From a virus, in IMG/VR virus record IMGVR_UViG_3300018421_000015, positions 22,300-86,299 of that record: a stretch of DNA of 64,000 bases; one strand, written 5' to 3'. The stretch's first letter is position 1, and each line of letters begins with the position of its first letter. The position numbers and the translations under genes were made by a program. Positions 2,446 through 51,314 of this stretch are shown in pieces. Below the pieces are notes generated by a model. The model had not been told where the DNA came from, searched no databases, and was given only the letters and a program-made list of their open reading frames with translations.

Positions 2446-3190
2446 ACGATTTGTAGTTGTAGGCGCTGGCGGTGTTGGTACCTGGCTATGCGCTGGTCTA
2501 GTACGCTTACTTGAGTGGAAGTATCCAGGCTCTGCTCTTATTATTGTAGATGGAGATACTTATGAAGAAAAGAATAAAGAGCGTCAAGACTTTACTAAAA
2601 TTGGAAACAAAGCCGTTGTCAAAGCAGCGGAACTCACTCCGCAATTCCCTAACACAACCATTATACCTGTGCCAAAGTGGGTGGTCGGAGACGACTTTAG
2701 TGGCGTCGCAGACGAAGATTCACCAAAGATAAAGGCCACTGATCTTATCCATGAAAACGACGTTGTTTTTGCGGTTGTTGATAACTTTGCTGCTCGTGCT
2801 ATACTTTTTGATGCCGCAAGGAAGCTCAATAACATTGACGTTTTTACAGGCGGTAATGATGATGAATTGTTTGGTTCTATTTATCATTATCAAAAGCGTG
2901 ATGGATTAGAAATCACTTGTCATCCAGAAGAGTTCCATCCTGAATATCTTAACCCACCAGATAAGAATCCAGGTGAACTCTCTTGTCAAGAACGATCAGA
3001 AATAGAAGGTGGCACTCAGCTACTAGCTACTAACATGGCGGTAGCTGCCTTCATTCTTGGTCGTGTACAAAAAACAATAGTGTCAAATCAAAACCCTGAT
3101 GAGACAGAGGTCTTCTTTGATCTCGGTCTTGGTAAGGCGGAGCCTTTCAATAGGACTCATGCTCATCTTAATGAACCATCATTAGTATAA
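2438..3190 (+). CDS. ThiF/E1-like Ubl-activating enzyme
   Basis: GAGGVG nucleotide loop, IVDGDTYEEKNKERQ, GNKA, AVVDNFAAR, and candidate catalytic Cys in LSCQE. The ATG overlaps the JAB stop. Confidence 0.9.
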   Translation: MSKRFVVVGAGGVGTWLCAGLVRLLEWKYPGSALIIVDGDTYEEKNKERQDFTKIGNKAVVKAAELTPQFPNTTIIPVPKWVVGDDFSGVADEDSPKIKATDLIHENDVVFAVVDNFAARAILFDAARKLNNIDVFTGGNDDELFGSIYHYQKRDGLEITCHPEEFHPEYLNPPDKNPGELSCQERSEIEGGTQLLATNMAVAAFILGRVQKTIVSNQNPDETEVFFDLGLGKAEPFNRTHAHLNEPSLV

Positions 3191-3510: not shown

Positions 3511-3547
3511 CTAAACTCAAACCCAGATTATTAGATTGGTTATTATT

Positions 3548-5131
3548 ATGATTAACAAAATTAAGCTGGGACTACCGAATCTCTGGTTGCAAGATCCAGA
3601 TTTTATTCGCTCAATCGATATAATAGTTTCGGCGGTTCCTGACCGAAACTATTATTACATCGATAGCATTAAAGGCTTCTGTAAATATGTAGACAATGAG
3701 TGGAAGCCAGTACTCGTACAAAATCCTCGCTCTGACGAAGAAGGCGAAAGCGATTACATAACCACTGACCATCCAGAACTTGCTAACGATTACCTGGATA
3801 ATTCCGATGAGCTCAATGTAACTGTCTTCAAGTTTATTGCCGGTGTCGATGCCGAAAGACTTCAGTACAGAATACCTATGCTGTACGATGCCCTTTCTAG
3901 GTATCGCCAAGCATTTTGGTCAGATTCTAAAACCGATCTTCCTCAACAAGTTATTTACATTAGTCCCCAAGAATGTCCAGAACCTCTAACGCCCTGCTTT
4001 GAAGTTCTGGAAAGTGTTTATCCTAACCTGTCAGAACTTGCAACAGTTCTTACACACATTAAAGACCGTGCTCCTAATTCTTTTGATGAAAACAATATCA
4101 AAGAAATTGCTCGCGCAGGTCTAGGCTTTAGTGAAACCGAATTCATATTTGCATGCCTTAATGTCATCAGCGAAGAAAAAACTTTGACCGCTAAGCATGT
4201 TAATGATATTAAAATGTCTAATATTAAGTCTCGTGGTATTCTTGAAATTATCAACCCCAATATAACCTTCGACAACATTGGTGGTCTTGATAATATTAAA
4301 GATATCATTAGGCGCACTTCAGTTCTTCGCCAAAACCCTCAGCTTTCTGAGGACTACGGCATAACTCCTATCAGAAGAATGCTTATGGTTGGTGTTCCTG
4401 GTACTGGTAAATCAGCAATCTGTCAGGCAACTGCTGCTGAGCTTAATCTTGATCTTGCTCGTACTGGTATTGCACAAGTTATGAACAAGTATATTGGCCA
4501 GTCAGAAGCCAACATGCGCGCTGTATTTCAGCAGATCAAACTCATGAATCCTTTATGCGTTTGGATTGACGAGTTTGGCCGTGATCTTTCAGGTAGTGGA
4601 GACGGTGCCGACAGTGGCACCACTGACCGTGTTCATGGTGAGTTCTTAACAGGTCTTCAAGAACTTCCTGAAGAATCATTCCTTTTGTGCGCAGCTAATG
4701 AGCTTCATTCTCTTAAGCCAGAAATGTTACGCGCAGACCGATTTGACAAGATATTCTTTGTCGGTCTGCCATCACATTCCGAGCGTAGCCATATCTTTAA
4801 GATTCATCTTAGCTCAATCAAAAACCAAGAGTATGATTATGACGCGCTTGCTGAATCTTCTGCCTTTATGACCGGTGCAGAGATAGTTTCTCTTATCAAA
4901 GAAACTAAGTTCTATGTTGTTTCTGAACATGCTCGTCCAATCAATACCAACGATATTCTCCAACGCATTCCTACCATCCGTAATACTATCTGGCGTAAGC
5001 ATCCCGATACTGTTAAAAGCATGTATCAATATGCTCTTGAACAGTGGGATTGGGCCTCGACAGAACAGATGGAAGATGCTAAGATAATTCTTGGTAGAAA
5101 TAAGTCTTCAACTAAACTATCATTTGCGTGA
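3548..5131 (+). CDS. AAA+ ATPase (Ycf46/SpoVK/Cdc48-like)
   Basis: FDNIGGLDNIK, Walker A GVPGTGKS, pore loop KYIGQSE, Walker B VWIDE, SRH PEMLRADRFD. Confidence 0.92.
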   Translation: MINKIKLGLPNLWLQDPDFIRSIDIIVSAVPDRNYYYIDSIKGFCKYVDNEWKPVLVQNPRSDEEGESDYITTDHPELANDYLDNSDELNVTVFKFIAGVDAERLQYRIPMLYDALSRYRQAFWSDSKTDLPQQVIYISPQECPEPLTPCFEVLESVYPNLSELATVLTHIKDRAPNSFDENNIKEIARAGLGFSETEFIFACLNVISEEKTLTAKHVNDIKMSNIKSRGILEIINPNITFDNIGGLDNIKDIIRRTSVLRQNPQLSEDYGITPIRRMLMVGVPGTGKSAICQATAAELNLDLARTGIAQVMNKYIGQSEANMRAVFQQIKLMNPLCVWIDEFGRDLSGSGDGADSGTTDRVHGEFLTGLQELPEESFLLCAANELHSLKPEMLRADRFDKIFFVGLPSHSERSHIFKIHLSSIKNQEYDYDALAESSAFMTGAEIVSLIKETKFYVVSEHARPINTNDILQRIPTIRNTIWRKHPDTVKSMYQYALEQWDWASTEQMEDAKIILGRNKSSTKLSFA

Positions 5132-16890: not shown

Positions 16891-17107
16891 AAACTACGGA
16901 GAACTTACTCCACATCAAGTAGACAAAGCTCGTGATGCGTGGCTTGATCCTGGTAATCTTTTTGATGAACAAGAACATCATGAAGACTGCGAAGATGAAG
17001 ACTGCGAAGGCGATTGTGTTGAAATTGGCGAACCAGACTGGGGCCAGATAATACAAGATCGAGAAGATTACGAGGCAGATAGGTGGCTAGATAATAATGG
17101 ATACTGA
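16880..17107 (+). CDS. small acidic protein
   Basis: HHEDCEDEDCEGDC, a possible metal site. Confidence 0.65.
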   Translation: MIRKNYGELTPHQVDKARDAWLDPGNLFDEQEHHEDCEDEDCEGDCVEIGEPDWGQIIQDREDYEADRWLDNNGY

Positions 17108-17267
17108 AGTTAATGATGAAAACTGGAATCATTTTTTCGTGACAGAAATTGATGACGCATACTGGGAAAGCCTGTTGCATTGGGTTGATCTCAATATAGA
17201 TTCTCTTGAGTACGCACTTTATGATGATTATCAAGAACCATTTAACGATAGACTGGAGGACTCATGA
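17097..17267 (+). CDS. small acidic hypothetical protein (not in ORF track)
   Basis: 56-aa ORF MDTEVNDENW...RLEDS, overlapping both neighbours. Confidence 0.55.
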   Translation: MDTEVNDENWNHFFVTEIDDAYWESLLHWVDLNIDSLEYALYDDYQEPFNDRLEDS

Positions 17268-17710
17268 AAGATAGGTTTAAAAAGACAAAACCTGATTCTT
17301 ACTCAGATGTAATTAAAACATCTCCCTACAAAAGCTCTTCTTATGATCCAAGAACTTTTGGTTCCAAAAACTACTCAGATACTTTTTTTAAAATGAAAAA
17401 GACTCCTTTAGAAGAAGTTATTGAACTTCGTGATATTTTAAGATCTGCCTATGCAAATAGGCCATCTGATGGTCATATAGAAAAAGTTCTTACTCACGCT
17501 CTTGCTGAAATCACTAATCTTGAAAAGAAGATTCAACGTCTTGAAAAAGATTTGGATGAAGCTAATAAAGATTTAATTGAAATACAAGTTGGTGACGAAA
17601 CTGTTGTTATAAATGGCGATCTAGCATCACAGGTTATTTCTTCTGGTGTTAAAAAATATATCACAGAAGCTTTGGAGGCTTATTGTGACTCTCAAACCGT
17701 TCAAGAATAA
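17264..17710 (+). CDS. hypothetical coiled-coil protein
   Basis: GGAGG RBS. ORF track. Confidence 0.7.
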   Translation: MKDRFKKTKPDSYSDVIKTSPYKSSSYDPRTFGSKNYSDTFFKMKKTPLEEVIELRDILRSAYANRPSDGHIEKVLTHALAEITNLEKKIQRLEKDLDEANKDLIEIQVGDETVVINGDLASQVISSGVKKYITEALEAYCDSQTVQE

Positions 17711-17909
17711 CATTGGTCCTTCTGGCGAAAAACCAGGTGACAGAATACAGCTAAGATTTACAAATGATCAGTACACCACCTTAAAACCTGGTGACAAAGG
17801 TACCGTAAACTTTGTAGATGATTACGGCACTGTACATATAAACTGGGATGAAGGATCTACATTAGGTCTTGTTCCTGATCACGATAAATGGATGGTTATA
17901 TCAAAATGA
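17685..17909 (+). CDS. DUF4314-like protein
   Basis: PGDRIQL..TND....PGDKGTVNFVDDYGTVHINWDEGSTLGLVP..D. Confidence 0.8.
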   Translation: MTLKPFKNNIGPSGEKPGDRIQLRFTNDQYTTLKPGDKGTVNFVDDYGTVHINWDEGSTLGLVPDHDKWMVISK

Positions 17910-19358: not shown

Positions 19359-19675
19359 TAGAAGAAGAGTTTGATATTAGGTTAGTAGATTTTAGTGAAT
19401 TATCAAACGAAGATGCTTTAGAACTATTAGAAGCCTCTAAAATAATAGCTCTTAAAGATTTATACTCGGGCCTTTTACTGTGGGGCATAATTGAGGTACA
19501 TAAGATTGAGAATCTAGATGAGTTGCATCATTTTCTCTTTGACCCCGAAAGCTTAGCTGCCGTTGAATATTATAATTCCTTTAAAGAATTAGGATACGAT
19601 AAAGCCTACTACAATATGAGGGATAGTTACGATAAGCTTACCTTTATTGAATCAGTAGTTAAAGAATTATCTTGA
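19355..19675 (+). CDS. hypothetical protein
   Basis: ATGA overlap. Confidence 0.65.
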   Translation: MIEEEFDIRLVDFSELSNEDALELLEASKIIALKDLYSGLLLWGIIEVHKIENLDELHHFLFDPESLAAVEYYNSFKELGYDKAYYNMRDSYDKLTFIESVVKELS

Positions 19676-20500
19676 CCACCTATTTGCTATCCATTCCAAC
19701 ATTCTAGAGAGCCAATTTCCTTTTCCATCTTTTTTTTCAAGAAGTTCATCTTTATCTCGCTGCTCTTTTTTGTATCTAGATTTTTGATTAATTGGAATAA
19801 ACGTAGATTTAAAACCACGCTGAGAAAGAAGATCGTATATACTACCGTCACCCCAAATGTAATTAATCCCTTTTTGCCTAGGAATAGGTACCACATGCTG
19901 CATAATTTCACCTATTTCTATAGTAAATTCTTTATCAGTCAATATGTTCAAAACTATATTTGCATGATGGTAATAATCGGTATTTACTAATGCTGGCAAA
20001 AGTGTATAGTTTGGATTAGGTTCCCAAAGTGGAGGAAGGAAAATGGAAGACCACCCTGGTGCCGTTTTAAATAGCCAGGGATTTATTATTTTAATATAAT
20101 TTGCTCTCTCAAGTTTTCTTACCCTAGTCACTGGGCATTCTCCACTTTGATGAAAACCAAAACCTTCAACATGAAATTCGTGATTACCAGCAATGTCAAA
20201 TCTACTTTCCCAAAATGAACCATCTGGAGATGGTCTGAAATGCAGTCTTGCCCACATCGGTATATTGAAACCAAGAGATATATAATCAGCTGTCCCAGAA
20301 CATCTTCTCAATGCACCATCTCCAGAATCTAAATCTTTCCACCAATCTGGCCAATTTCTCCAGTTATCAATTGGCATTACTTCAGGGTCATAGAGCATTT
20401 GTGTATTCGGAGTAATTAAAACCTCACCTGGTTTTACTTTTGGTATATTATAAAAAGAATTAGCTGTCTCTATTTTTAGTTCTCTCAATGGCTTCTCCAT
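19667..20500 (-). CDS. DUF6065-like protein
   Basis: RC...GF.IP, PWLFKTAPGWS, LPALVNTDYY. Parallels the motifs of 48458..49183. Confidence 0.65.
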   Translation of the reverse strand: MEKPLRELKIETANSFYNIPKVKPGEVLITPNTQMLYDPEVMPIDNWRNWPDWWKDLDSGDGALRRCSGTADYISLGFNIPMWARLHFRPSPDGSFWESRFDIAGNHEFHVEGFGFHQSGECPVTRVRKLERANYIKIINPWLFKTAPGWSSIFLPPLWEPNPNYTLLPALVNTDYYHHANIVLNILTDKEFTIEIGEIMQHVVPIPRQKGINYIWGDGSIYDLLSQRGFKSTFIPINQKSRYKKEQRDKDELLEKKDGKGNWLSRMLEWIANRWSR

Positions 20501-21968
20501 GATCTATCATCTTTAAATTAATTAGATTAGAATTTGTCTCGCTTAGATGTTGAGTTGCTATTCTTCTGGATAGGTGTGCATTCAGCGAAACCGTTGCGGA
20601 TTCACTATTTAGAACTCCTTGACCCTGGGCAACGTGCCAGAAATGAGGTATAAAGAAGAGCTCAAATCCATTAGCAGTTATATCATGATCTTCGGGAGGT
20701 CGTTCTGACCATATTTCCAAAAGCTTCTGTAGCATTAGAGGCTTAGGTCTATTTTGTTGATCTAACCACATCTTAGTGTCATTTCTGTCAGAAATATAAT
20801 GTAAACAAATCATACTCAAAGCATTTTCCATAACTTCATTCATTATCTTATTATATTCTCTTATGGAGAATTCTGTCTTTTCGTTAAAGTTTGCTATATA
20901 TGAGCATAGTAATCTGGCCTGCTGTATCCCTATTGATATGGTTGTAGCCTCTAAAGGTTCGATGAAGCTATACGATAGGCCTATTGATACACAGTTTTTT
21001 TGCCAAGGTTCGCTATAATAGCCGGGTCTGAACTTAATGAATCTAGGATTTTCTATTTCAATACCATGAAACTCTTCAGCCTCAATAATCGCCTCCTCTT
21101 CAGTTATATAAGAGGAAGAGAAAACATATCCATTACCTTTTCTTTCTTGAGTTGGTATTTCCCACATCCACCCAGCATTCATGCTGATAGCTCTTGTGTA
21201 TGGGTGAATCTTTCCAAATATGTCTTTATCAGTTTGAAAAACTAGAGCTGTATCACAAGGTAAGTATTCGCTAAATGAATTAAACTCCACATTCTGCATT
21301 TTACTGGACAGCACTCTTGCAAATCCTGTTGCATCTATAAAAAAATCTCCAGATATTTTACTATCGAAACCATTAACTTTTATATATTTTATATGACCAT
21401 TTGAACCCTTATTTACAGATTCAATTTCACCTTCAACAAATCTTATGCCCATGTTATTGGCAAAGTTCTTAAGATATTTGTTGAGAAGAAATGTATCAAA
21501 ATGATATTGATTTGTTCCAAGATGAGTTTTATCTGGCTCTGTATCATCTTCACTAATCCCATCTATAACCTGATCCTCAATCATGCCTTTCCAGGAAAGT
21601 GAATTTGTTAAAAGGATTTCATTTTCTAGCAAAAAGCTATAGGTTGCATAGAAGGAGTTTCGTTTAATTCCTGTACCAGAAACAGAATGGATATACTTTG
21701 GCGTATGATTATTCCATCCCTCAAACATGATTCCATATTTGTGGGTGACGCCTGCAAATTTAATCATATCATCTACATTTATTCCAACAAAATCCTGAAA
21801 CCATCTCCAATGTTCCGTAGACCCCTCTCCTACGCCTATAATAGGGCTTTTTTCGGAAAAGCATACGGTTATGTCATATAAGGGGAATGTTTTTTTTAGA
21901 ATTATTGCAGTTGTCAATCCCGATGTACCAGCTCCGGCGATGACGATATGTTTTTGATCTATCTTCAT
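20460..21968 (-). CDS. Flavin-dependent (tryptophan halogenase family) halogenase
   Basis: GAGTSG, IGVGEGS, catalytic-type Lys in THKYGI, FFIDATGF, GWMWEIP (WxWxIP), FIEPLEAT. Confidence 0.92.
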   Translation of the reverse strand: MKIDQKHIVIAGAGTSGLTTAIILKKTFPLYDITVCFSEKSPIIGVGEGSTEHWRWFQDFVGINVDDMIKFAGVTHKYGIMFEGWNNHTPKYIHSVSGTGIKRNSFYATYSFLLENEILLTNSLSWKGMIEDQVIDGISEDDTEPDKTHLGTNQYHFDTFLLNKYLKNFANNMGIRFVEGEIESVNKGSNGHIKYIKVNGFDSKISGDFFIDATGFARVLSSKMQNVEFNSFSEYLPCDTALVFQTDKDIFGKIHPYTRAISMNAGWMWEIPTQERKGNGYVFSSSYITEEEAIIEAEEFHGIEIENPRFIKFRPGYYSEPWQKNCVSIGLSYSFIEPLEATTISIGIQQARLLCSYIANFNEKTEFSIREYNKIMNEVMENALSMICLHYISDRNDTKMWLDQQNRPKPLMLQKLLEIWSERPPEDHDITANGFELFFIPHFWHVAQGQGVLNSESATVSLNAHLSRRIATQHLSETNSNLINLKMIDHGEAIERTKNRDS

Positions 21969-21969
21969 A

Positions 21970-22563
21970 TCATTTAAACCAGGTAACTAAAGAGTACTTC
22001 ACCGTTTCATCATCTGCACCAGCTGGTTTGGCTATATGCAAATACGGGAAATTGGATGGGAATAAGACACAGGATCCAGCTTGCGGCTTTATCTCAACAT
22101 CGAAATGAGGAAATACTAATTCGCCACCAGAGAAATCATCATTAAGAAAACAAACTAAGCTTAAAACTCTTTCATTATTTGGACCATGATCTTGATGAGC
22201 CCTATACTCTGCCCCTTTTCCATATCTTAATACTCTATAATTTTCGTCACCACTTAACTCCAATTCAAAGTCATCCCTATAGTCCCAGACGGTTTTATCT
22301 ATAGATTGGAAAATATCTATCCAAGTTGAATGCAATTCACTAATCCTCGAAGAGTGACCATCATAATTTGATAAAGGGGACAATTCACACGACATAGATG
22401 TTCGAACATCTGATATGTATCCATCACCCACTTGAGCTCTAACCCAATTAAGAAAAGACCACTCCTGAGAACACTCGCTTTCTAGTAGGTCTATAAATTT
22501 TTTACCAGAATCAAAAACATTAGTATATAACCTAATGCAAGTTCCTAAATCTTCTTTTTTCAT
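21970..22563 (-). CDS. 2OG-Fe(II) oxygenase, prolyl-4-hydroxylase-like
   Basis: HQD...LNDDFSGGELVF...H...KYSLVTW. Confidence 0.9.
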   Translation of the reverse strand: MKKEDLGTCIRLYTNVFDSGKKFIDLLESECSQEWSFLNWVRAQVGDGYISDVRTSMSCELSPLSNYDGHSSRISELHSTWIDIFQSIDKTVWDYRDDFELELSGDENYRVLRYGKGAEYRAHQDHGPNNERVLSLVCFLNDDFSGGELVFPHFDVEIKPQAGSCVLFPSNFPYLHIAKPAGADDETVKYSLVTWFK

Positions 22564-22564
22564 A

Positions 22565-23188
22565 TTAATACAAGCTTTCTCTATATTCTTGTTCTTTCTT
22601 CCTTATCACGGAGTGATGTGCCTGGCCTATCGTTTTACTCCAATGGTTACCGGGTACAAAGTGATAAAATATAACACTAACTTCATTAGTCTTGGGATTT
22701 GGAAAATCTGGTCTCCAATGATATTGATCTTCACCATAGTATATTATAGCATCATTAGGGTCAACCGTAAACTCCTTACCTTCAACAAAAAGGGGCCAGG
22801 CATCCTTGTGGTCGATAGAAACATCTATCGTATACGTACATGCGTTGTCATCTACATGCTCGAACAGTCTAGCCTTATAACCTCTGTAGGTAGAAAATAT
22901 AGCATAGGACGCCTCAATGGTATCGTCCAAAAAAAGTTCTTTAGCCAAAGGAACTAATTTTTCAAGCGACTCTCTGAGCATGCAATCAGGGCCGCTATTC
23001 TGGGTATGATAGGTTAGTCTACCGAAACCTTCGTCATAAATAAATAGGGGTCTATTATTATTCCTTAAGTTAAGTAAATAATCCTTTAGAGAATTAAAAT
23101 ATGATACATCAAATACCCCCTCATAGACGAAAGCATCAGGTCTTAGTGTTAGGTTTCTGCCTGTTCTTTTATCAAAATAAGTTTCCAA
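22565..23188 (-). CDS. 2OG-Fe(II) oxygenase-like
   Basis: HVD...HWR...IFYHF. Confidence 0.75.
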   Translation of the reverse strand: METYFDKRTGRNLTLRPDAFVYEGVFDVSYFNSLKDYLLNLRNNNRPLFIYDEGFGRLTYHTQNSGPDCMLRESLEKLVPLAKELFLDDTIEASYAIFSTYRGYKARLFEHVDDNACTYTIDVSIDHKDAWPLFVEGKEFTVDPNDAIIYYGEDQYHWRPDFPNPKTNEVSVIFYHFVPGNHWSKTIGQAHHSVIRKKEQEYRESLY

Positions 23189-23194
23189 AATATA

Positions 23195-23899
23195 TCACTT
23201 AGACTCCTTCTTAGCCTTTTCTTCTGGTGCATCATCTTTAACCTCTGGATCTTCTTGAATTGAACACAGGTAAAATGTGCTAATCATCCATTTATCACCG
23301 GATATTGGAGGATTTCCCTGGTGTGGATGTGTCCAATGCGCAGGAAAAATAGCTATGCTACCAGCTCGTGGCTTTACGCTTTGTTCGTATATTGGAAAAT
23401 ATGTCTCGCCCCCAACCTCTACATCGTTAAGGTATACTATTCCAGCTAAAACTCTTTTGCCTACAGAACCGGACAGAGGGTTAGGCGATGACCACGGAGT
23501 GCCATCAACATGCTGTCGATAATGCCCCCAATTAGTTCCATAATGTTGAAGCCTAAAACCAGTATCAGTAATTCCTGGCCAATGCCACAATTCATTATAT
23601 GTTTTTTGATAATAAGCGATACAGCCAAAAAGGGCTTGATTTATTGTCGACTCGGCGTTAGCAAAGATCATGGAATTTATCCCGAGTTCCTGAAGTGCAT
23701 ATGAACTAAAATTAAAATCCATACTAGATTTAACGAATGGATTAATCCCACCAATTGTCGGTCCAGGAGAAAACAAATCCTTGTAATACTTATTGCATTC
23801 CCCAATAAGCTCTGAACATAAATCTGGATCTATTGCGTTTTTTGCCTCTAGAATATAACTTTGCTTTCCACCAAGAAAGTTTAACTCTACATTTTTCAT
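23195..23899 (-). CDS. 2OG-Fe(II) oxygenase, P4H-like
   Basis: HVD...YLNDVEVGGETYF...HPHQG...GDKW. Confidence 0.9.
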   Translation of the reverse strand: MKNVELNFLGGKQSYILEAKNAIDPDLCSELIGECNKYYKDLFSPGPTIGGINPFVKSSMDFNFSSYALQELGINSMIFANAESTINQALFGCIAYYQKTYNELWHWPGITDTGFRLQHYGTNWGHYRQHVDGTPWSSPNPLSGSVGKRVLAGIVYLNDVEVGGETYFPIYEQSVKPRAGSIAIFPAHWTHPHQGNPPISGDKWMISTFYLCSIQEDPEVKDDAPEEKAKKESK

Positions 23900-23939: not shown

Positions 23940-24200
23940 CTACGAAGGCGTCGCTGCATTGAGTGAGTTTTCAGCTAAGAGCAGTGTTTCATATAACGAA
24001 ATTTGAATCATGAGCATCTCTTGGTTACTATTCTTATTCGAATCTTCATAATCAACTTCAACGTATTCTGAAGGAACAAAAGATTCAGGATTTATACCTA
24101 TTCTAAGGCAGCAGGTATACATCTGTTCTAGTACAAAAGTTTTCTGAGAGTCAACCAAATTCTGTCTAACTTCTAATGAAAGATCTGAAAATATGGACAT
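23940..24200 (-). CDS. small acidic hypothetical protein
   Basis: AGGAG RBS. TTACTATATA upstream. Confidence 0.75.
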   Translation of the reverse strand: MSIFSDLSLEVRQNLVDSQKTFVLEQMYTCCLRIGINPESFVPSEYVEVDYEDSNKNSNQEMLMIQISLYETLLLAENSLNAATPS

Positions 24201-24241
24201 TATTTCTCCTTAATAAGATATTTATATAGTAAAGCAAAAAG

Positions 24242-27200
24242 TTAAGCGTCTAATATTTTAGAGAAATTAGAATGCCCTATCTGATTCTGAACATTTCCGG
24301 AATCTCTAGAAACTATTAAAACACCACCCTGGTATCCTGGATCATACGTTGAAGGATCTGCGGTACCTCCAGCTCCTCCAGCTCCTCCAGCTCCACCAGT
24401 TCCGCCTAAGTATTCAAGGTTATCATAGGATTCATTATGGCCAGCATTATAGGGGTTTCCATGGTGAGGACCAGACGGAAGTGCCCCACCAGTAGCATGA
24501 TGTACATTATAGGATGGATGGTGATGGTATCCAGCTGTAAAAGTGGTTGGATTCTGAGATCCACCTGTTGACTGAACAAACCTCCTACCTATAAGCGGAA
24601 CACCAGGTACTAAAGCATGTGCCGCGAAGTTTACTCCATCATTCGTACCGACAAAGTGATAAATACCAGCTGCACCTACATGTGAACCCGGAGTATGACC
24701 TCTTAAATGCCTCGTCCCAGTATGGTTCTCGTCATTAAAGTCAGTAGTGTAAAGATACCTAACTGTTGGAGTTGTCGGATCATTTAATGGCGATATAGGT
24801 CCCGCAGTATGATCATGATTCCCTTCAGGCCAACTGCCAGAATGGTAATCGCCAGTGTGCCCATTGGCAGTTCCAGTATGAGTAACGGGAGTGTGGCCAG
24901 CAATATTTGCTGCCGTAGGAGCACCATGAATATTTAGCCCATTTATATCTCCATGAGGGTAATACCCTGCGTTGTGTAGATATTCCTTGTTTCCACTATG
25001 TCCAGAATAGTTAGTAGGAAGATTAGAATTTTGCCCATGATTCACATCGGGATTATGCCCTGGTGTATGGTGTACCCACTCTCCAGAATTCCACCCTTCA
25101 TTATAATGTGCGCTATGATTGTGGGTAGACCTCGGATAAAATGGTGCACTAGAGGGATGGCCATTGTAATTATTGTGATTATGATTATAGTCATGGTTAC
25201 CTGCGTTATGGCTATAGGTATTAGTGTGTTGATGAGGATTATTTGCCGGTAAGTTTGGTGAATTATAGTGACCAGAAGTATGGGGGTGAGTATGATTAGG
25301 ATTGTGTCCTGGATTATGATTTATGTGATCACCAGCATTAAATGATAAAAAGGTATAAGCATTACCATTGTACACCTGATTAGCTGGAACACCAAGCGCC
25401 GGATTAGCATGGGGAGCAGAGTTATGGTTGCTGTTACCCGAAACAGCAGGGCCATTTCCCGACCCAGGGTTTACTCTATGCCAGTAAGTCTGAATGCCAG
25501 TTAGTGGTCCAGTATAATGATTTTGATGGCTTCCACTATGGTTATGATTATTTGTGGGCCATATCGGAGAATTGCTAGGAAGGATCTGCAAGTGATGTGG
25601 TTTAGTGGAGTAATAAGTGGTATGGCTTCTGCTGTGTGTATTGTGAGATCCATAATTATGTGAATTATAGCCGGAGCTGTGCCAGGGTGTCACGTTACCT
25701 GTATGACCTACAGGATTATCATTTGTTGAATTATATGTACCATGGCCAAGACTGATAGCAGGTGAGGGTATAGATGGGCCAACGTTTGCATGATTACCTG
25801 CGTTGTGGGGGTGCTCGCTCTTTGTATGAAACTCGGTACCCGCTATATGATAATGGCCTGCAGGATGGGTGGCATTTGATGGATTGCCCGGCAAAGTACC
25901 GGCACTGTGGGGATGATTACCAGGATGATAACCATGCCCGTGCTGATTATGTACGGTAGCAGTGTGGCCATTATGCCCGGTGGGAAGATTAACTGATGGC
26001 GTATGATGCTGGTTTGCAGGAAAAACAGGTGCATGAGCGTCATCGAAAGTGGTATGCGAGGGCCACGATCCATCTCCTGCATGAGGATGTGTAAGCTGCT
26101 GATGAAAAGGTGTACCTGGGATTGTTCCAGGAGTATGGTGATGATACATGTTTCCCGCATTACTTGGAGCGGCAACAGTTGAGGGAAGATGTATGTTGGC
26201 ATTGGTGCCAGTTGAATTATGCGCGTGAGATATCTCACTACCCAAAAAAGGATATGAAGAATTAACACCAGCCGGATGATCATGATACCCCGGATTATGA
26301 CCCTGTGGGTCATAAATAGCGTTATGGTTTGAAACATTTGGTCTTTGATTTGCTGGTAGTCCACTAAAAGCTGGATAGTTTGTTGGGGCTATACTTACTG
26401 CCGGATGAGGATGTTCACCCTCATTTATTCCCTGGTTAAAAAAAGTTGCATCAGTGGGAAATGGATTAGCGTTCCTTATATCATATAAGTCTGAAATGTC
26501 ATATAAATTACCATGGTTATGAGTAGAGGGATTAAAAGTACCACCAGAAGTAGTAGCGTTATGACTTAACTTGCCCCCTGTTGCTGCAAAAATTGATCCG
26601 GTTCCTGATCCATGAGGGTGATTTCCTGCCGATACATGATGGTAACCCTGATTTACGCCAGAATCGTAAGGGCTACCTAAGTTAGCAAATGAGTCTATGT
26701 TTGGTGCAGGGTTGCCTGGGTTGCCATCTACGCCATCCAATCCCTGGGAAGGGCTACTCTCTGAAGTGGAAGATGTTCCTCTTGATTCAATTATTCCAGA
26801 ACCATCTATAGTTTTAGCTACTATAAGAACAACTCCACCACCAGAACCCCTTTGCCCACCACTACCTCTTGCAGCAGCGTTTCCATCTTGACCTGGGTTG
26901 CCTGGGTTGCCAGGGCCACCAGGAGATCCTGGTGGTAGTGATATAAATGCACCAGGGTTACCCGGCTGTCCAGGTTGACCTTCACCGGGATCTTCTAGGT
27001 CACCAACTTGTTGATCACCAGGTTGGCCACCAGAAACGGCGTGTATATTTCCATCAGCGGAGACTAGAAAACCATTAACAGCTACATCTAGGTCTTTAAC
27101 AATATTTTCAGATAAAGCTTCATTAGCAGATCCTTCACCCCAAGCATAACTCTTAACTACATCAGATCTCCTAGAAACAGTAGAAGCATTGGCTGTTTCT

Positions 27201-27466
27201 AAGATATTATTAGGCATTCCTATAGTGCCATTATTGGTTAGAGTACCATTAACCAATATTCTAAACCCATTGGTAAATAATGTTGCACCGGATTGAATTG
27301 TTAAATCTTGGTAATACATATCTGATGATAGGTATATTGTTTGACCAGAAGAAATGGTCAAACTCCCATCTGACCCGTCTCCGAACATCTCATCTACACC
27401 GGCAGTCATAGTCTGCTCGGCCTTAGTCAGGCTAAATTTATTGTTTACTCTTCTTACTCTAGCCAT
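24242..27466 (-). CDS. Gly-rich virion-type protein with collagen-like segment and ~740-aa His/Asn/Gly/Pro-rich insert
   Basis: N-terminal FGDGSDG...LTIQSG..L.TNGFR shared with 27468..28247. GQPGNPG repeats. About 100 His by hand count. Confidence 0.85.
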   Translation of the reverse strand: MARVRRVNNKFSLTKAEQTMTAGVDEMFGDGSDGSLTISSGQTIYLSSDMYYQDLTIQSGATLFTNGFRILVNGTLTNNGTIGMPNNILETANASTVSRRSDVVKSYAWGEGSANEALSENIVKDLDVAVNGFLVSADGNIHAVSGGQPGDQQVGDLEDPGEGQPGQPGNPGAFISLPPGSPGGPGNPGNPGQDGNAAARGSGGQRGSGGGVVLIVAKTIDGSGIIESRGTSSTSESSPSQGLDGVDGNPGNPAPNIDSFANLGSPYDSGVNQGYHHVSAGNHPHGSGTGSIFAATGGKLSHNATTSGGTFNPSTHNHGNLYDISDLYDIRNANPFPTDATFFNQGINEGEHPHPAVSIAPTNYPAFSGLPANQRPNVSNHNAIYDPQGHNPGYHDHPAGVNSSYPFLGSEISHAHNSTGTNANIHLPSTVAAPSNAGNMYHHHTPGTIPGTPFHQQLTHPHAGDGSWPSHTTFDDAHAPVFPANQHHTPSVNLPTGHNGHTATVHNQHGHGYHPGNHPHSAGTLPGNPSNATHPAGHYHIAGTEFHTKSEHPHNAGNHANVGPSIPSPAISLGHGTYNSTNDNPVGHTGNVTPWHSSGYNSHNYGSHNTHSRSHTTYYSTKPHHLQILPSNSPIWPTNNHNHSGSHQNHYTGPLTGIQTYWHRVNPGSGNGPAVSGNSNHNSAPHANPALGVPANQVYNGNAYTFLSFNAGDHINHNPGHNPNHTHPHTSGHYNSPNLPANNPHQHTNTYSHNAGNHDYNHNHNNYNGHPSSAPFYPRSTHNHSAHYNEGWNSGEWVHHTPGHNPDVNHGQNSNLPTNYSGHSGNKEYLHNAGYYPHGDINGLNIHGAPTAANIAGHTPVTHTGTANGHTGDYHSGSWPEGNHDHTAGPISPLNDPTTPTVRYLYTTDFNDENHTGTRHLRGHTPGSHVGAAGIYHFVGTNDGVNFAAHALVPGVPLIGRRFVQSTGGSQNPTTFTAGYHHHPSYNVHHATGGALPSGPHHGNPYNAGHNESYDNLEYLGGTGGAGGAGGAGGTADPSTYDPGYQGGVLIVSRDSGNVQNQIGHSNFSKILDA

Positions 27467-27467
27467 A

Positions 27468-28247
27468 TCAAGAAACCTGACAATAAACTACTCTTCCGTT
27501 AGCTCCGCCTGTGCCACCGCTAACATCCGTTGTTACACTACTATTTAGTACATCATTAGAAGAAACAACAACAACTACACCACCGCCACCACCACCGGAA
27601 CCGGAATCACCTGGAGCGCTAAAATAGGCTGTTCCTGATTTGACAACAATATATCTAGCAGCGATTATCACAACTCCACCACCTGCACCAGTTTGACCAC
27701 CAGCACCACCCCTAAGAAAGACTGGTGCACCAATACCTGCAGTAATTGAATAGCCACGAGCAGCATTTAAGGGTTGATTGTAAAAGTTTGCACCACCTTC
27801 TTCTGGAGTAGGTTCTGTTGCTGATCTATATGTGGTTGATCCACCAAGGCTATGCGTCACTGCTTCGGCTTGAGCTCCACCCTGTCTTATTGATCCATCT
27901 GTTGAGAATCCAGAAGTAAAACCTATCCTAGAGTTAGAGTTAAGGATTAAAGTATTCCTAACGAATAATCTATAACCACTTGTTTTAAGATGAATTCCTG
28001 AATTTATGGTTAAATTATGGAAAAACAAATCTCGGTTCATACTATAAACATTAGAGGAAGGCGACATACCAAGGACAGAGGAACTTCCATCAAGAGTTGC
28101 ACTTCCGTCAGCTGCTGAACCAAAAAGGGCATTAGCAACATCTAGATTATTTAAAAAAGCTAATGTCTCATCTTCCAGTGAAGATGATGAATCAAAATAG
28201 CTCTTTCCTACACCAAATCTGTTATTCCTTCTAAATCCAGTCATCAA
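27468..28247 (-). CDS. Gly-rich virion-type protein (short paralogue of the His-rich protein)
   Basis: FGSAADGS...NLTINSG..LKTSGYRLFV, GGGVVIIAAR, GGGGGGVVVV. Confidence 0.8.
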   Translation of the reverse strand: MMTGFRRNNRFGVGKSYFDSSSSLEDETLAFLNNLDVANALFGSAADGSATLDGSSSVLGMSPSSNVYSMNRDLFFHNLTINSGIHLKTSGYRLFVRNTLILNSNSRIGFTSGFSTDGSIRQGGAQAEAVTHSLGGSTTYRSATEPTPEEGGANFYNQPLNAARGYSITAGIGAPVFLRGGAGGQTGAGGGVVIIAARYIVVKSGTAYFSAPGDSGSGGGGGGVVVVVSSNDVLNSSVTTDVSGGTGGANGRVVYCQVS

Positions 28248-28603
28248 CTTTCCTCTATTCCATTAATAATTAAATTCACAGAGGCACCGGCGTCGCAAAC
28301 TGCTACTATTTGATCAGAATTAGAAGCGCCCGCTGTTGAACCATTATTATTAAGGACTAGAGAAGTAGAAAGTGATAAAGTTTCATCTGCAGATATTGAT
28401 ATATCGCTGAAAAATATATGAGAACTGGATAATGTCTCTCCAGCTGGCTTACAATACAATTTAACAGTTCTTGTACTCGCAGAATAATTACAAAGTATTA
28501 TTTCTTTTATTATAGTCACAGTATTCTGTGGAACCGTGTAATAATCTGCATTTGACGCAGTTAATGTAGAAGGTCCAACAAGACGCTTTTGAATGAGGGG
28601 CAT
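28244..28603 (-). CDS. small beta-rich putative virion protein
   Basis: YTVP..T.TIIKEIILCN...SVNLIINGIE. Confidence 0.7.
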   Translation of the reverse strand: MPLIQKRLVGPSTLTASNADYYTVPQNTVTIIKEIILCNYSASTRTVKLYCKPAGETLSSSHIFFSDISISADETLSLSTSLVLNNNGSTAGASNSDQIVAVCDAGASVNLIINGIEES

Positions 28604-28715: not shown

Positions 28716-29141
28716 ATGAATGAGTATATGTATTTAGAAAAATTGACATTTGCTACTGCTGTTTCTTACACTGTAGCTGAAACTATTTATAAAATCAAGG
28801 AAAACAGATTTACTCAGCCTAAAAATGTTAAAAAATGGCAAATGGTAATCAGTGATGCACTTCATCATTTTCAATACGACTTATCTGCAGTGGTGGAACA
28901 AAAAGGGTATCAATTTACAAAAATACCATTTGCATACTGCCACGTAGATTCAAGAACATTGATAAGTAATCGATACAGTGGATGTGATGCAAGAATATAT
29001 CTAAACATTGGACCTGGTACAATAAACCTACCAATGGATTTAGAAGTTGGTGATGCGATGATCACGACAACAAGAGAAAACACATTTTACTCAAAACCAC
29101 AAAGTATAGTTTTTTATAGAGATTTAGTAAAAAATGACTAA
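28716..29141 (+). CDS. hypothetical protein (possibly degenerate DSBH oxygenase)
   Basis: Contains HVD but no clear distal His. Co-oriented with the P450. Confidence 0.6.
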   Translation: MNEYMYLEKLTFATAVSYTVAETIYKIKENRFTQPKNVKKWQMVISDALHHFQYDLSAVVEQKGYQFTKIPFAYCHVDSRTLISNRYSGCDARIYLNIGPGTINLPMDLEVGDAMITTTRENTFYSKPQSIVFYRDLVKND

Positions 29142-30357
29142 GGATGCAATAAGTGATCAATGGATACTTGACCTATCTGTTGATCACCATGATCGCGAAA
29201 TAAGATCCTCAATCTTTAAAGCGTATACTGAATTAAGAAAACCCGTATGGTTTAATGACCATAAAAGGCCAGATGTAAACTATTTATCAGTTTTTACCTG
29301 GGATGACGTAAGCTTAGTTAGTTCAAAATCAGATATTTTTCACTCTAAGGAGGGTTATCTTATAAATGACAACTTTGACAGAATGTCTTTTGATGGCTCA
29401 CTCTTGTCAATGAATGGGGAAGAGCACAAGAACATGAGGGCAATTGTTTCTTTCATATTTACAAATAAAATGGTCCAAGAACTGGAGCCTATGATAAGAA
29501 GAATAGCCAAAAAAGCCTTTGAGCAGGTTTTGTCACAAAATGATAAAATTGATATATTTAAAACTGTATGTACAGATATACCTTTAAATATAAATGCAGA
29601 AATGATGGGCATGCCGGAAGAGTTGAAGTATGAAATTTTAAATTTAACAAAATTTATAGTTGTAAATGATGATCCCGACTATGGGAATAGTAAACCACTA
29701 AAATGGCTCCAAGCGACAAAAAGAATGAAAAACCATGCCCTGTCTATTGGTGAGTTAAACAAAAATTCTCAAAACACTAATATGACGACTATGCTCCTAA
29801 ATTCCATGGATAACTCCAAGAATCTTACCTTAGAAGAATACTCTCAATTTTTCATGCTATTAGTCATTGCGGGCATGGAAACAACTACTCATTCCCTGGC
29901 TCATGGAATAAAGTTGTTGTATCAAAATCCGGATCAACTTGATTTACTTAAAAATAATTTCGACACCTATATAGAAACAGCTTGCGAAGAAATACTAAGA
30001 GTTGAACCAACAGTGCTACACTTCAGAAGAACTGCGACTATTGATACCGAAATATCTGGTGTACCAGTAAAAAAGGGTGACAGAATACTTACCTGGTACA
30101 ATTGTGCGAATAACGATTCGGAAAAATTTAATAACCCCTATGAATTTGACATAACAAGGCCCAAAAGACCTCCCCATACAACCTTCGGTGGACCTGGCAT
30201 ACACCATTGCCTGGGGGCCGGACTAGCTAGACTTGAAATGAAAATATTTTACGAATATTTATTTGAATATATTCCTGAAATAAAGTTAGACCTTGATAAC
30301 ATTAAATATGTTAAAACACGCTGGGCAAATGGTTACAAATCAATGCCACTAAAATAA
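29134..30357 (+). CDS. Cytochrome P450 (CYP125/124-like signature)
   Basis: I-helix AGMETT, ExxR (EEILR), heme motif FGGPGIHHCLGAGLARLE. Confidence 0.95.
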   Translation: MTKDAISDQWILDLSVDHHDREIRSSIFKAYTELRKPVWFNDHKRPDVNYLSVFTWDDVSLVSSKSDIFHSKEGYLINDNFDRMSFDGSLLSMNGEEHKNMRAIVSFIFTNKMVQELEPMIRRIAKKAFEQVLSQNDKIDIFKTVCTDIPLNINAEMMGMPEELKYEILNLTKFIVVNDDPDYGNSKPLKWLQATKRMKNHALSIGELNKNSQNTNMTTMLLNSMDNSKNLTLEEYSQFFMLLVIAGMETTTHSLAHGIKLLYQNPDQLDLLKNNFDTYIETACEEILRVEPTVLHFRRTATIDTEISGVPVKKGDRILTWYNCANNDSEKFNNPYEFDITRPKRPPHTTFGGPGIHHCLGAGLARLEMKIFYEYLFEYIPEIKLDLDNIKYVKTRWANGYKSMPLK

Positions 30358-47560: not shown

Positions 47561-48181
47561 TTAGCCCAATATCTCATTTATGCACTCTCTAACTGTCCAG
47601 CTTTCACCGGTTGTAAGAGGCACTGTATCGAGTGGCATTGATTGCCAATTAAATCTTCCAATCATAGTTCCTGATCTACCGACAACAAACATCTCCCAGG
47701 CATGAGGTATTCTAGCCAGGGCTGCACCTTCCTGATTCCATCCATCTTGCGCTTCCTGAGAGTTGTCGGCCATGTTGTCAGACTTGTTTCTTAGAGCTTT
47801 ACCCTTCAATAGGGAATAAACTTCACATTCATCTGGCCCATTAACATCAACCTTTTCAGCTATAGGAAAAGTAACGAAAGGATATGTTTCTTTCATGAAG
47901 GAACTTATCTCCTCATTTGTACCAGTTTCCATTAGACCCTGAACAAACTGATTACAGGGAAATGCAACTACGCTAAACCCTCTATTCTCAAACTCTTCTT
48001 GTAGCTTTTGCAGCTGCCAGAAATGCCTAACAGATCTTGCGTATGACCAGAAGGTGGAGCACTGTGGTGTGTAGTTATACTTAGAAACTGTATTAACTAT
48101 AAGAGTAACTTTACCCTTGAATTGCTCCATAAAATTATCTTCGCCATCTATTGACTTAACTGGCACATCGTAAATAGACAT
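47561..48181 (-). CDS. Glutathione peroxidase-family protein (atypical)
   Basis: GKVTLIVN, GFSVVAFPCNQF, TFPI..KVDVNG. The canonical Cys position reads Tyr. Confidence 0.88.
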   Translation of the reverse strand: MSIYDVPVKSIDGEDNFMEQFKGKVTLIVNTVSKYNYTPQCSTFWSYARSVRHFWQLQKLQEEFENRGFSVVAFPCNQFVQGLMETGTNEEISSFMKETYPFVTFPIAEKVDVNGPDECEVYSLLKGKALRNKSDNMADNSQEAQDGWNQEGAALARIPHAWEMFVVGRSGTMIGRFNWQSMPLDTVPLTTGESWTVRECINEILG

Positions 48182-48465
48182 TATATTACCTCACACTTTG
48201 CTTCAATATATACCTGTTCCAAAAGTGGATCTTCCACCTTTATTACACTGCTATCGCTACCTAGGGAAAAGATTAACCTACAATCAAAAGGAACGGTCAG
48301 ATCCCCTTCTGCCAACAAGCCCTTTTCATCATTAAAAACTATATTTAAATCTGCAGAACCTTTAAATATAGATAAGGTTAACTCAGTATCACTTTTCTTC
48401 TCAATAGAAAACTCTTCATCACCAAGCGGCGTAACTACTTTCATCTTAGATGGGATGCTATCCAT
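48181..48465 (-). CDS. hypothetical protein
   Basis: ORF track. GAGGT RBS. Confidence 0.65.
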   Translation of the reverse strand: MDSIPSKMKVVTPLGDEEFSIEKKSDTELTLSIFKGSADLNIVFNDEKGLLAEGDLTVPFDCRLIFSLGSDSSVIKVEDPLLEQVYIEAKCEVI

Positions 48466-49183
48466 TGTATTCAACCTCTTTCATTTCTGGTTCTTGCAGG
48501 TCGGGTAGACCATCATGTCTAGGACCTATTCTTTCACCTTTTTCATTTAATCCTGTGCGTATTCCGTTCATCCACGTCCAGGGCTCATCACGAAGCTTTT
48601 TCATCTTGGCCTCGCTGTAGGACATTCTTTCATCCATAAGATCTGGTTTATCCCAAAGGTATTCAACCTCAACTTCCATTTCTGGCATCAAGTTAGAGGG
48701 GTATACTGAAAAGAATATGAACGGCATCCCTGCAGGAAATACCACTGGCTCATTAACCTTAGTTATCTTCCAACCAGCTTGAACCTCATCTGGCCACCAA
48801 TCAGAGGGGATGCTAGCCGTAAGTGGTACAGCGCCATCAATAAAATAGTTTGGTGAACCACTAATCCATGTATGATATCCAGGCTCTGTCTTAAAAGCCC
48901 ATCCAATATGAAAATCGATCATACCTATCTTATTGCAATTCGCAATAGTTCTACCACGGTAGACATCACCTTCAACGATTTTAGGGACACTGTTGCCACC
49001 TTCCCAAGTGACAACAATGTCCTGCTGCAAAATGGCTTCCCAACCATTTACATTTGCAGCACTGAGTGGAAGACATCTATAAGCATGTTTGTTATAGGTG
49101 TCATCCATCCAGTCTCTTTTCAGTCTCGACTGCTTTATTTCAGGCGAGATCTGATGTGTTCTTATTAAGGTAAGCTTTGACAT
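48458..49183 (-). CDS. DUF6065-family protein
   Basis: RDWMD.T..KHAYRCLPL..AN..GW, FKTEPG...GSPN, PL...I.SDW, F..G.PF. Confidence 0.8.
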   Translation of the reverse strand: MSKLTLIRTHQISPEIKQSRLKRDWMDDTYNKHAYRCLPLSAANVNGWEAILQQDIVVTWEGGNSVPKIVEGDVYRGRTIANCNKIGMIDFHIGWAFKTEPGYHTWISGSPNYFIDGAVPLTASIPSDWWPDEVQAGWKITKVNEPVVFPAGMPFIFFSVYPSNLMPEMEVEVEYLWDKPDLMDERMSYSEAKMKKLRDEPWTWMNGIRTGLNEKGERIGPRHDGLPDLQEPEMKEVEYNG

Positions 49184-51259: not shown

Positions 51260-51265
51260 AAAAAC

Positions 51266-51276
51266 AGTATACCACA
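51266..51276 (-). promoter_or_regulatory. extended -10 promoter, leaderless
   Basis: TGTGGTATACT lies 6 nt upstream of ATG 51259 and there is no SD. Confidence 0.6.
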
Positions 51277-51308: not shown

Positions 51309-51314
51309 TACTTC

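Follow-up and report, generated by a model that had tools for sequence, protein, structure and literature searches.

In the excerpted text of PMC11705849, the tip of T4 gp37 is described as a collar, needle, and head in which seven Fe ions are bound by HxH motifs (citing Bartual et al. 2010), and the presence of HxH in marine phage fibers is given as the basis of the "Ferrojan horse" idea (citing Bonnain 2016). The Nereis jaw proteins Nvjp-1 and Nai11527 are, according to the excerpt of PMC13120676, rich in His and Gly and largely unstructured, bind Zn via their imidazoles, and are halogenated and cross-linked. Among phage enzymes, halogenase-like genes were found in 20 of 153 cyanophages (excerpt of PMC10452541). 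Here we compare with these systems P0001, a 1074-aa His/Asn-rich protein encoded on the minus strand at 24242..27466 (stop codon included; from the open reading frame [ORF] list and its translation) of a 64,000-nucleotide window of viral DNA, the whole stretch that was analyzed, which corresponds to bases 22300-86299 of a viral contig in IMG/VR (86.3 kb, with a completeness rating of 41%). P0001 is a real, conserved, and unusual protein and represents the longest known form of an unstudied family. We propose that it may form a metal-binding, adhesive virion projection that is tailored by the enzymes encoded beside it, a composite explanation to which we assign a probability of roughly 0.45.

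The composition of P0001 is far from chance and is conserved in its family. The 1074 residues include 149 Gly, 120 Asn, 104 His (9.7%), 99 Ser, and 93 Pro, together with 10 Lys, 20 Arg, and no Cys, in line with the first-pass annotation of this DNA, which had noted no Cys and few Lys/Arg. The same annotation had described an insert of ~740 aa with about 100 His, and this description holds, as 24420-26645 encodes residues 274-1016, which comprise 743 aa with 102 His and 95 Asn. From the AlphaFold2 model and the family alignment, we place the His/Asn/Gly/Pro-rich insert at residues 271-1015 (24422..26656, minus strand), a stretch of 745 aa containing 102 His. The motifs that had been named in it are present but rare, with two copies each of HNAGNH and GNHPH, one of HTPGH, and three of GHNP. 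A search of 5.8 billion protein clusters returned 14 homologues of 1065-1332 aa, all metagenomic and all unnamed, and reading frames are intact in these 14 full-length proteins; each of the 15 long members thus assembled lacks Cys and contains 8.5-11.0% His. Scans against Pfam (0 at E ≤ 0.01), PHROGs, and NCBIfam assigned no family to P0001 or to its 259-aa neighbor, P0002, and tblastn of both proteins against 50,697 phage records (cultured phages) gave no match at E ≤ 1e-3. An ESM Atlas search with P0001 gave no usable match that included the insert, and megablast of the locus yielded only two 40-base chance matches. Tandem Repeats Finder reported only four 9-12-base arrays, of 2-4 copies each, and a diagonal window scan of P0001 against shuffles revealed no internal repeat above controls. 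The pneumococcal histidine-triad motif (HxxHxH) was also considered and was rejected, with a single occurrence.

The AlphaFold2 model of P0001, built with a 33-sequence family alignment, together with sequence conservation makes it very likely that the protein consists of a scaffold and an insert. The predicted scaffold comprises an N-terminal β-helix (residues 1-270; 26657..27466, minus strand) and C-terminal strands (residues 1016-1074; 24245..24421, minus strand), both delimited by AlphaFold2, VIA-align, and conservation; the C-terminal part contains GGxGG repeats, a hydrophobic strand, and then a conserved GHSNFxKI tail, while residues 1-25 form a conserved N-terminal peptide outside the model. 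In 10-residue blocks, the predicted local distance difference test score (pLDDT) runs at 82-93 for residues 31-90, drops to 43-67 for residues 91-160, recovers to 68-92 for residues 161-260, and is 77-88 for residues 1021-1050 of the C-terminal part. Conserved columns (at least 12 of 15 sequences) make up 51% of residues 1-270 and likewise 51% of residues 1016-1074, and VIA-align matches run over model residues ~31 to ~1059. The earlier claim that the insert lies inside a Gly-rich domain is borne out, because AlphaFold2 joins residues ~1016-1057 with ~30-260 in one β-helix.

The Gly-rich paralogue P0002 is encoded one base upstream of the His protein gene, at 27468..28247 on the minus strand, and is predicted by AlphaFold2 to be a single-chain β-helix (pLDDT 84.3, predicted template modeling score 0.80). 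The N-terminal resemblance between the two proteins that had been noticed at first pass is significant, both by BLASTP (residues 27-79 against 41-103, 32% identity, E 6e-7) and by hhalign run on the family alignments of both (98.5% probability, E 2e-15, over only 63 columns), which together delimit a shared module at P0001 residues 23-85 (FGDGSDG...LFTNGFR..., 27212..27400, minus strand). The likeness once suggested for the C-terminal strands is not significant in sequence (E 2.7, 25), but AlphaFold2 places them in the same β-helix. A collagen-like Gly-X-Y/X-Pro-Gly stretch does exist, as had been said, at residues ~163-198 of the translation (26873..26980, minus strand); however, it lies in the scaffold, outside the insert, and with only 4 + 6 triplets P0001 does not match the collagen profile PF01391.

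Both the predicted scaffold and the P0002 model adopt a single-chain right-handed parallel β-helix. In VIA-align comparisons, the scaffold is closest to bactofilin (6ria; Z 8.1, rmsd 2.1, 72 residues aligned) and matches pertactin and autotransporter helices with Z 5-6.6 (pertactin 2iou_H, Z 6.6), and P0002 reaches Z 7.5 to pertactin, bactofilin, and a Caldicellulosiruptor adhesin domain (tapirin-like 4wa0). Because the tool rates Z values of 7.5-8.1 as middling and common for unrelated solenoids, we claim the fold class and not kinship. The likeness to β-helix adhesins and bactofilin (2iou_H, 6ria, 4wa0, autotransporter, and two-partner-secretion proteins) extends over 72-121 residues at Z 7.5-8.1 and rmsd 2.1-3.7, whereas none of these proteins carries a comparable His-rich insertion and the P0001 family matches no Pfam, PHROG, or NCBIfam entry. 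The bactofilin profile PF04519 matches neither P0001 nor P0002 (Pfam, E ≤ 0.01), Foldseek of P0002 against the PDB gave nothing at E ≤ 0.001, and among 16 paralogues searched against PHROGs the only family hit was phrog_13336, in 3. A profile of P0001 and its homologues (15 sequences) compared with all PDB chain sequences detected no fiber protein at E ≤ 10, its sole matches being two pullulanases (E 0.75-0.93) aligned via a Pro/Gly-biased linker. Against BFVD, Foldseek of P0002 found "collagen-like" Pandoravirus and Orpheovirus proteins and uncultured tailed-phage proteins (E 3e-11 to 2.5e-5), of which the best matches are S4VX73 (Pandoravirus dulcis), A0A2I2L380 and A0A2I2L5F3 (Orpheovirus), and A0A6J5LEU1, with E 3e-11 to 1e-7, TMq 0.50-0.58, and 20-25% identity. 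These giant-virus and phage proteins likewise combine Gly-X-Y-like stretches with this β-helix; they differ in that no His-rich insert is known in them, their structures are predicted, and their relation to a collagen triple helix is unproven.

The insert is conserved position by position and is not mere low-complexity bias. All 15 sequences share 32 His, 27 Gly, and 11 Pro at identical positions of the insert (residues 271-1015). The positions kept in at least 12 of the 15 include 44% of the His (45 of 102), 40% of the Gly, and 36% of the Pro, with corresponding values of 7% for Thr, 5% for Ser, and 0% for Gln. Because the aligner tends to stack His on His, the inserts were also shuffled and realigned as a control. 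Realignment of the genuine inserts alone yielded 46 conserved His columns, 36 Gly columns, 21 Asn columns, and 7 conserved HxH pairs, compared with 13-20 His columns, 1-5 Gly columns, and no Asn columns or HxH pairs in five shuffle controls. The seven HxH pairs are invariant in 15 of 15 homologues and survive to ~40% identity. An invariant W-P-x-G-x-H-x-H segment lies around residue 879. Conservation peaks at both bases of the insert and is lowest around its middle, and the sequence entropy of the insert is not below that of the scaffold.

The length of the insert varies greatly across the family. An IMG/VR scan identified 45 related loci, among which near-duplicates are frequent, with 27 distinct N termini in the 28 loci analyzed. 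The His-type paralogues span from 388 aa with 2.8% His (L018) to 1332 aa, by way of a protein of 471 aa with 3.4% His (L029), several of 542-611 aa with 6-13% His (L013, L008, and similar), and two of 625 and 689 aa with 16% His (L007 and L006, respectively). In the shorter relatives (388-689 aa), the corresponding site holds a smaller insert, inserts of the long class measure 735-1003 residues, and, with 73 mid-size members added by a further search, insert length forms a gradient from ~65 to ~1000 residues. At its lower end, P0150 (371 aa) is 95% identical to P0147 (582 aa) save one 211-residue gap and retains only ~65 residues at the insert site, though it could be an assembly artifact, as it derives from a 2.4-kb contig. 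In L006 (10001-12067) and L007 (10663-12537), the center of the insert is a run of ~16 tandem "NHHHH" octads with HHHH tracts, a natural His-tag string, and in L029 the same site is filled by His-poor GGNVNP units. The variation in length and repeats, together with P0150, suggests that the insert is a discrete, dispensable, and fast-evolving module.

More distant relatives share less of the protein. A profile search of 1.84 billion representatives returned 3608 proteins at E ≤ 1e-3, of which 79 reach E ≤ 1e-30, and the weaker matches mostly share only the N-terminal module of ~60 residues. Thousands of proteins that are otherwise unlike one another contain this module (FGxGxDG...LFTNGFR), often mid-chain, and one of them bears a type IV pilin-like N-methylation motif; the module appears to be a widespread β-helix start that has no name as yet. 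Scanned against Pfam, 5 of 37 distant relatives contain a lectin-like Lcl_C domain (only P0236 above the cut-off) and 3 of 37 contain collagen repeats. The P0236 scaffold, behind which the Lcl_C domain lies, likewise bears a His-rich insert.

Disorder predictions for the insert weigh against the composite explanation. The pLDDT is ~28-48 in all blocks throughout residues 261-1015, and a charge-hydropathy plot likewise places the insert among disordered sequences; it may be no more than a flexible brush. In such an account, the insert would be a metal-independent, disordered polar brush or spacer on the β-helix, perhaps hydroxylated and glycosylated like a mucin or extensin coat, and would act by bulk, through polysaccharide sticking, anti-aggregation, or shielding, with His merely an uncharged polar residue. 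The extreme length variation, the near-insertless variant, and the presence in the window of a PF11397 GlcNAc transferase, other sugar enzymes, and ten PF13640 oxygenases would all suit a brush. However, regions selected for bulk properties seldom keep exact positions, whereas in this insert 32 His, 27 Gly, and the seven HxH pairs are invariant down to ~40% identity and above the level of shuffles, His-His spacings of 3 and 4 are avoided, and paired equal-length indels occur (see below). We therefore regard the brush as unlikely.

The spacing of the His residues bears on metal binding. Across 33 family members taken together, with 300 shuffles of each as reference, His-His spacings of 2, 5, and 7 occur more often than expected (471, 505, and 526 times against ~385, and against 386 for spacing 2), while the helical spacings of 3 and 4 are depleted (249 and 280 observed). 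P0001 taken singly shows only a weak excess of HxH (19 observed, z 1.6), which counts against the composite explanation. The conserved His positions fit putative metal binding, and, judged from these patterns, the insert is a probable metal binder.

Related His6-metal sites occur in proteins that include P2 gpV and R-pyocin fibers, and the GxHxH variant presumably corresponds to the "His boxes" of T-even tail fibers, a tie for which a literature search found no paper. The insert might accordingly be read as a gp37-type needle, in which three chains would contribute six strands, each three-chain HxH would hold one iron, and the whole would amount to a very long "Ferrojan horse" fiber. The P0001 family resembles T4 gp37 in its conserved HxH and GxHxH, in a fiber gene neighborhood, in a variable distal part, and in a chain that perhaps leaves its base domain and returns, and the seven invariant HxH pairs, the occurrence of 6 of the 19 HxH within GxHxH, the enrichment of spacing 2, the hints of an out-and-back layout, and the precedents of the seven gp37 irons and of HxH in marine phage fibers cited above all speak for a needle. 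In contrast to the trimeric collar of gp37, however, the base of P0001, like the paralogue, is predicted to be a self-contained single-chain β-helix and not an interwoven trimer. Moreover, P0001 has no detectable sequence relation to any PDB fiber, its ~745-residue insert places most of its ~100 His outside HxH pairs (only ~14 of 102 lie within the invariant ones), and relatives swap HxH for HHHH octads or His-poor GGNVNP units at the same site. Because of these differences in sequence, base fold, and His placement, P0001 is not filed as a gp37-type needle, which we consider rather improbable.

Comparison of indels between close relatives suggests how the chain of the insert may run. Among 84 unique full-length members, 178 pairs share at least 70% identity. 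The two insert halves of L006 and L007 (83% identical) show length differences of +27 (first half) and +26 (second half), and those of P0004 and P0005 (70% identical) show +83 and +83, which a diagonal scan resolves into two separate tandem duplications in P0004, with periods of 88-90 and 83-84 residues. Smaller matched indels separate L013 and L047 (+11/+12), P0138 and P0139 (-7/-7), L024 and P0157 (5/5), and P0164 and P0168 (7/8). Of 20 distinct two-indel signatures, 16 have the same sign in both halves, and 7 of these 16 differ by at most 1 residue (permutation p 0.002, in a test that is dominated by indels of 5-8 residues and carries no correction for shared ancestry). In both L029 and L007, 8 + 8 repeat units lie on either side of a central gap. 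The P0004 duplications map to P0001 residues ~462-554 and 717-800, and their midpoint places the inferred turn near residues 631-643 (25538..25576, minus strand), within which no homologue departs from P637, H641, or H643; on either side, blocks 576-625 and 651-700 show the lowest conservation in P0001.

Several comparisons weigh against this layout. In addition to the makeup of the permutation test, of the 9 two-indel events in which an indel reaches 10 residues or more, only 1 is matched, and unmatched cases include L046/P0159 (30 vs. 18), P0152/P0153 (21 vs. 5), and P0015/16 vs. P0009 (~45 vs. ~115). Nearly all of the difference between P0009 and P0012 falls in the second half, and by eye the L006 repeat units number ~7 vs. 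9. When the insert bases (residues 262-400 and 866-1010) were predicted as a complex together with four Zn, the score was 0.17 against a mark of 0.32, which speaks neither for nor against arm pairing. The evidence is thus mixed, and we hold with moderate confidence that the insert is an elongated, hairpin-like stalk with a variable distal part.

P0001 is the last protein of a tightly packed trio. The first, a 119-aa protein (28244..28603, minus strand; phrog_20100, E 2.3e-9), has a stop codon that overlaps the start of the 259-aa gene, which in turn ends one base before the ATG of P0001. The 259-aa-type paralogue adjoins the His-type gene in 44 of 45 loci, and the 119-aa gene lies upstream of the pair in most loci (it was not detected in L032, L034-L044, and L045). 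Beyond P0001, and past an 86-aa ORF (23940..24200, minus strand) that matches no Pfam or PHROG family and is kept only in L003 (43% identity), lies a cassette of enzyme genes, all on the minus strand. The first encodes a 234-aa prolyl-4-hydroxylase-like 2-oxoglutarate (2OG)-Fe(II) oxygenase (23195..23899; PF13640, E 6.4e-11; HxD at 130). It is followed by a 207-aa protein (22565..23188; phrog_2954, E 4.8e-11; no Pfam match), which, with HVD at 111, is probably a third 2OG-type oxygenase and is kept in many cassettes, and by a 197-aa prolyl-4-hydroxylase-like 2OG-Fe(II) oxygenase (21970..22563; PF13640, E 1.6e-15; HQD at 123), which is present in every related locus that reaches far enough. Next are a 502-aa flavin-dependent, tryptophan-type halogenase (20460..21968; PF04820, E 1.3e-98) and, as the last conserved cassette member, a 277-aa DUF6065-like protein (19667..20500; phrog_7084, E 3e-19). 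Taking GxGxxG, a Lys, and WxWxIP as the presumed halogenase motifs, and HxD as that of 2OG oxygenases, the halogenase motifs are intact (GAGTSG at 12-17, K77, and GWMWEIP at 266-272). The nearest ESM Atlas clusters of the 277-aa protein carry DUF6065 (score 0.96-0.97), it follows the halogenase in related loci, and its profile has only weak dUTPase-like matches in the PDB (E ≥ 0.12).

A linkage survey, in which the cassette proteins of the window were compared by tblastn with the 45 loci, revealed a recurring order: 119-aa protein, 259-aa paralogue, and His-type protein, then a PF13640 oxygenase, halogenase, DUF6065-like protein, second PF13640 oxygenase, and 207-aa HxD protein. The halogenase is found in 33 of the 45 loci; 11 of the other 12 end at most 3.3 kb downstream of the His gene start, and the twelfth, L045, encodes a distant relative of 368 aa and lacks the paralogue. 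The enzymes of L029, L032, and L033 are upstream of the trio and not downstream, but still adjacent, so that adjacency persists despite rearrangement. The tie between the enzymes and the His gene that had been proposed at first pass is thus kept across diverged relatives, and we regard the linkage as nearly certain. A cytochrome P450 gene lies beside the trio on the opposite strand (29134..30357, plus strand; PF00067, E 3.2e-26), and a P450 at 24% identity is encoded just after the cassette in L039, L040, L041, and L043 (~17050-17904), making it a possible cassette member. P450s can cross-link aromatic and imidazole side chains in peptides.

Whether the His protein is the substrate of these enzymes is a separate question. 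The first-pass annotation had suggested β-hydroxylation of His and Asn; this is not favored, since the oxygenases are of the prolyl-4-hydroxylase-like PF13640 type, which makes Pro in X-Pro-Gly the likelier target. "PG" sites number 4-29 in all 33 His-type proteins, compared with 0-2 in 16 paralogues, and P0001 contains 22, of which 11 are in its first 270 residues; the scaffold includes N-P-G repeats. Three observations argue against simply taking His as the target. First, the cassette is kept by relatives with only 2.8-3.4% His. Second, related halogenases (33-35% identity, 63 records) occur in cultured cyanomyoviruses and in pelagiphage HTVC008M, in which tblastn detected no relative of P0001 or P0002. 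The cassette halogenase and those of cyanophages share the same Pfam family (PF04820) and the GxGxxG, Lys, and WxWxIP motifs, but differ in that the cyanophages lack a relative of the His protein or its paralogue, so that the cassette enzymes need not act on P0001. Third, the halogenase of S-H38 sits among small hypothetical genes and misnamed oxygenases. VirX1 of Syn10 is reportedly another viral flavin-dependent halogenase, said to have been described by Gkotsi et al. in 2019. A literature search found no paper linking a phage halogenase to a His-rich fiber protein. Taken together, a role for the His protein as putative substrate of the cassette enzymes is plausible from the gene arrangement but falls somewhat short of even odds.

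If the insert were both modified and metal loaded, it might resemble the Nereis jaw proteins. In this analogy, the halogenase, the prolyl-hydroxylase-like oxygenases, the DUF6065 protein, and possibly the P450 would hydroxylate, halogenate, and cross-link the 745-residue hairpin, to give a chemically hardened, metal-loaded projection, a viral counterpart of the Zn- and halogen-sclerotized worm proteins. The insert is similarly Gly/His-rich and largely unstructured, and the halogenase, oxygenases, and P450 are encoded alongside, but the likeness is one of analogy only, and the excerpted worm values of 16% His and 29% Gly differ from the 13.7% His and 11.8% Gly of the insert. We consider a hardened projection quite improbable.

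The virion context of P0001 is suggested by its neighbors and its fold. In L012, a 194-kb contig, the trio starts 198 bases after, and on the same strand as, the gene for a 1394-aa collagen-like tail fiber (phrog_5073, E 2e-136). Adhesion is suggested by the lectin-like domain of P0236 and by the fold matches of the paralogue, which are mostly surface adhesins. In the window itself, fiber-like and baseplate-like genes are located at 51-63 kb, and the nearest recognizable fiber genes are ~24 kb from the trio, which lies within an enzyme island; this weighs against a virion role. Because the family has no cultured relative, its virion location is putative; metal binding and modification are likewise putative, a further point against the composite explanation. 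Judged from context, the chances that P0001 serves in virion adhesion are slightly better than even.

P0001 might instead act within the infected cell, either as an Fe(II) store or chaperone for 2OG oxygenases or as a precursor or scaffold on which modified peptides or small molecules are made. In favor of such a role, oxidative enzymes are numerous in the window, with ten PF13640 2OG oxygenases, a TauD-type and an Oxy_5-type oxygenase, the P450, and the flavin halogenase, and the cassette resembles peptide-tailoring gene sets; the virion location of P0001, being putative, also leaves room for this alternative. However, the fold of the paralogue is adhesin-like, relatives are fused to Lcl_C or lie behind a tail-fiber gene, P0001 contains no repeated core peptides, and its insert is most variable at the tip, which is typical of host-contact surfaces and not of a metal store. 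A nonstructural role is accordingly very unlikely.

The composite explanation that we favor can be set out as follows. The gene would encode a small single-chain β-helix "display" protein, the second of two paralogues in the trio, in which an uncharged, Cys-free projection of 745 residues, rich in His, Asn, Gly, and Pro, has grown out of a loop close to the C terminus of the helix. The chain would run out and back, with its two halves side by side and the variable middle at the far tip. Conserved His residues, many of them in GxHxH or HxHxAG, would clamp the arms, or several chains, together via transition-metal ions, and the whole structure would be a virion-borne device for adhesion or host recognition. 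The co-inherited enzymes would tailor the projection, most likely by proline hydroxylation at X-Pro-Gly, with halogenation or cross-linking of aromatic or imidazole side chains as possible further steps.

Other features of the window and contig were noted. The density of oxidative enzymes in window 20460-50678 (~30 kb) is exceptional for a phage: it contains the ten PF13640, Oxy_5, and TauD oxygenases and a glutathione peroxidase (47564-48181). Sugar-related and other genes in the window include the PF11397 GlcNAc transferase, a DegT aminotransferase, a carbamoyltransferase, and two DUF6065-type genes. In the region 48461-53471 (minus strand), the second DUF6065 gene, a strong match (PF19541, E 6e-41), is beside two further PF13640 oxygenases and directly downstream of an fn3-containing, tail-fiber-J-like gene (51318-53471), so that DUF6065 and 2OG oxygenases are found near a fiber-type gene twice in this phage. 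At 739-3187 and 3536-5128 (both plus strand), a 568-aa prokaryotic JAB deubiquitinase-type protein is encoded beside a ThiF/E1-like protein and an AAA ATPase, which may form a ubiquitin-like conjugation or counter-defense set. The word TATAAATA, that of T4-type late promoters, is not enriched in the window (10 observed vs. 7.9 expected); one copy lies at 24219-24226 (minus strand), between the His gene stop codon and the 86-aa ORF start, and, because the word is not enriched, this copy may be meaningless. Upstream of the window, the contig encodes a WhiB-type transcription factor (PF02467, E 1.2e-11; L049:18634-18990, equivalent to G000:C1:18634-18990), and there is a weak DUF732 match at L049:13673-14161. 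WhiB-type and DUF732 genes are typical of actinobacteria and their phages. These matches suggest that the host may be an actinobacterium and not a cyanobacterium, despite the cyanophage-like halogenase.

To our knowledge, the natural substrates of the many 2OG-Fe(II) oxygenases and flavin halogenases of large aquatic phages are not known. The enzymes described here are locked to one protein family across deep divergence and rearrangement, which provides a concrete, cloneable candidate substrate. With ~100 His per chain, P0001 would be by far the most His-dense and longest metal-binding module proposed for a phage, and as such bears on the trace metal that virus particles may carry in iron- or zinc-poor waters. 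The series of inserts from ~65 to ~1000 residues on one scaffold offers natural lengths for structural and binding studies, for which an insert-poor form of the P0150 type could serve as a ready-made natural control. Finally, if the hardened projection were to prove true, P0001 would be the first native protein substrate of viral halogenases and would give a function to many orphan 2OG oxygenases of large marine and freshwater phages.

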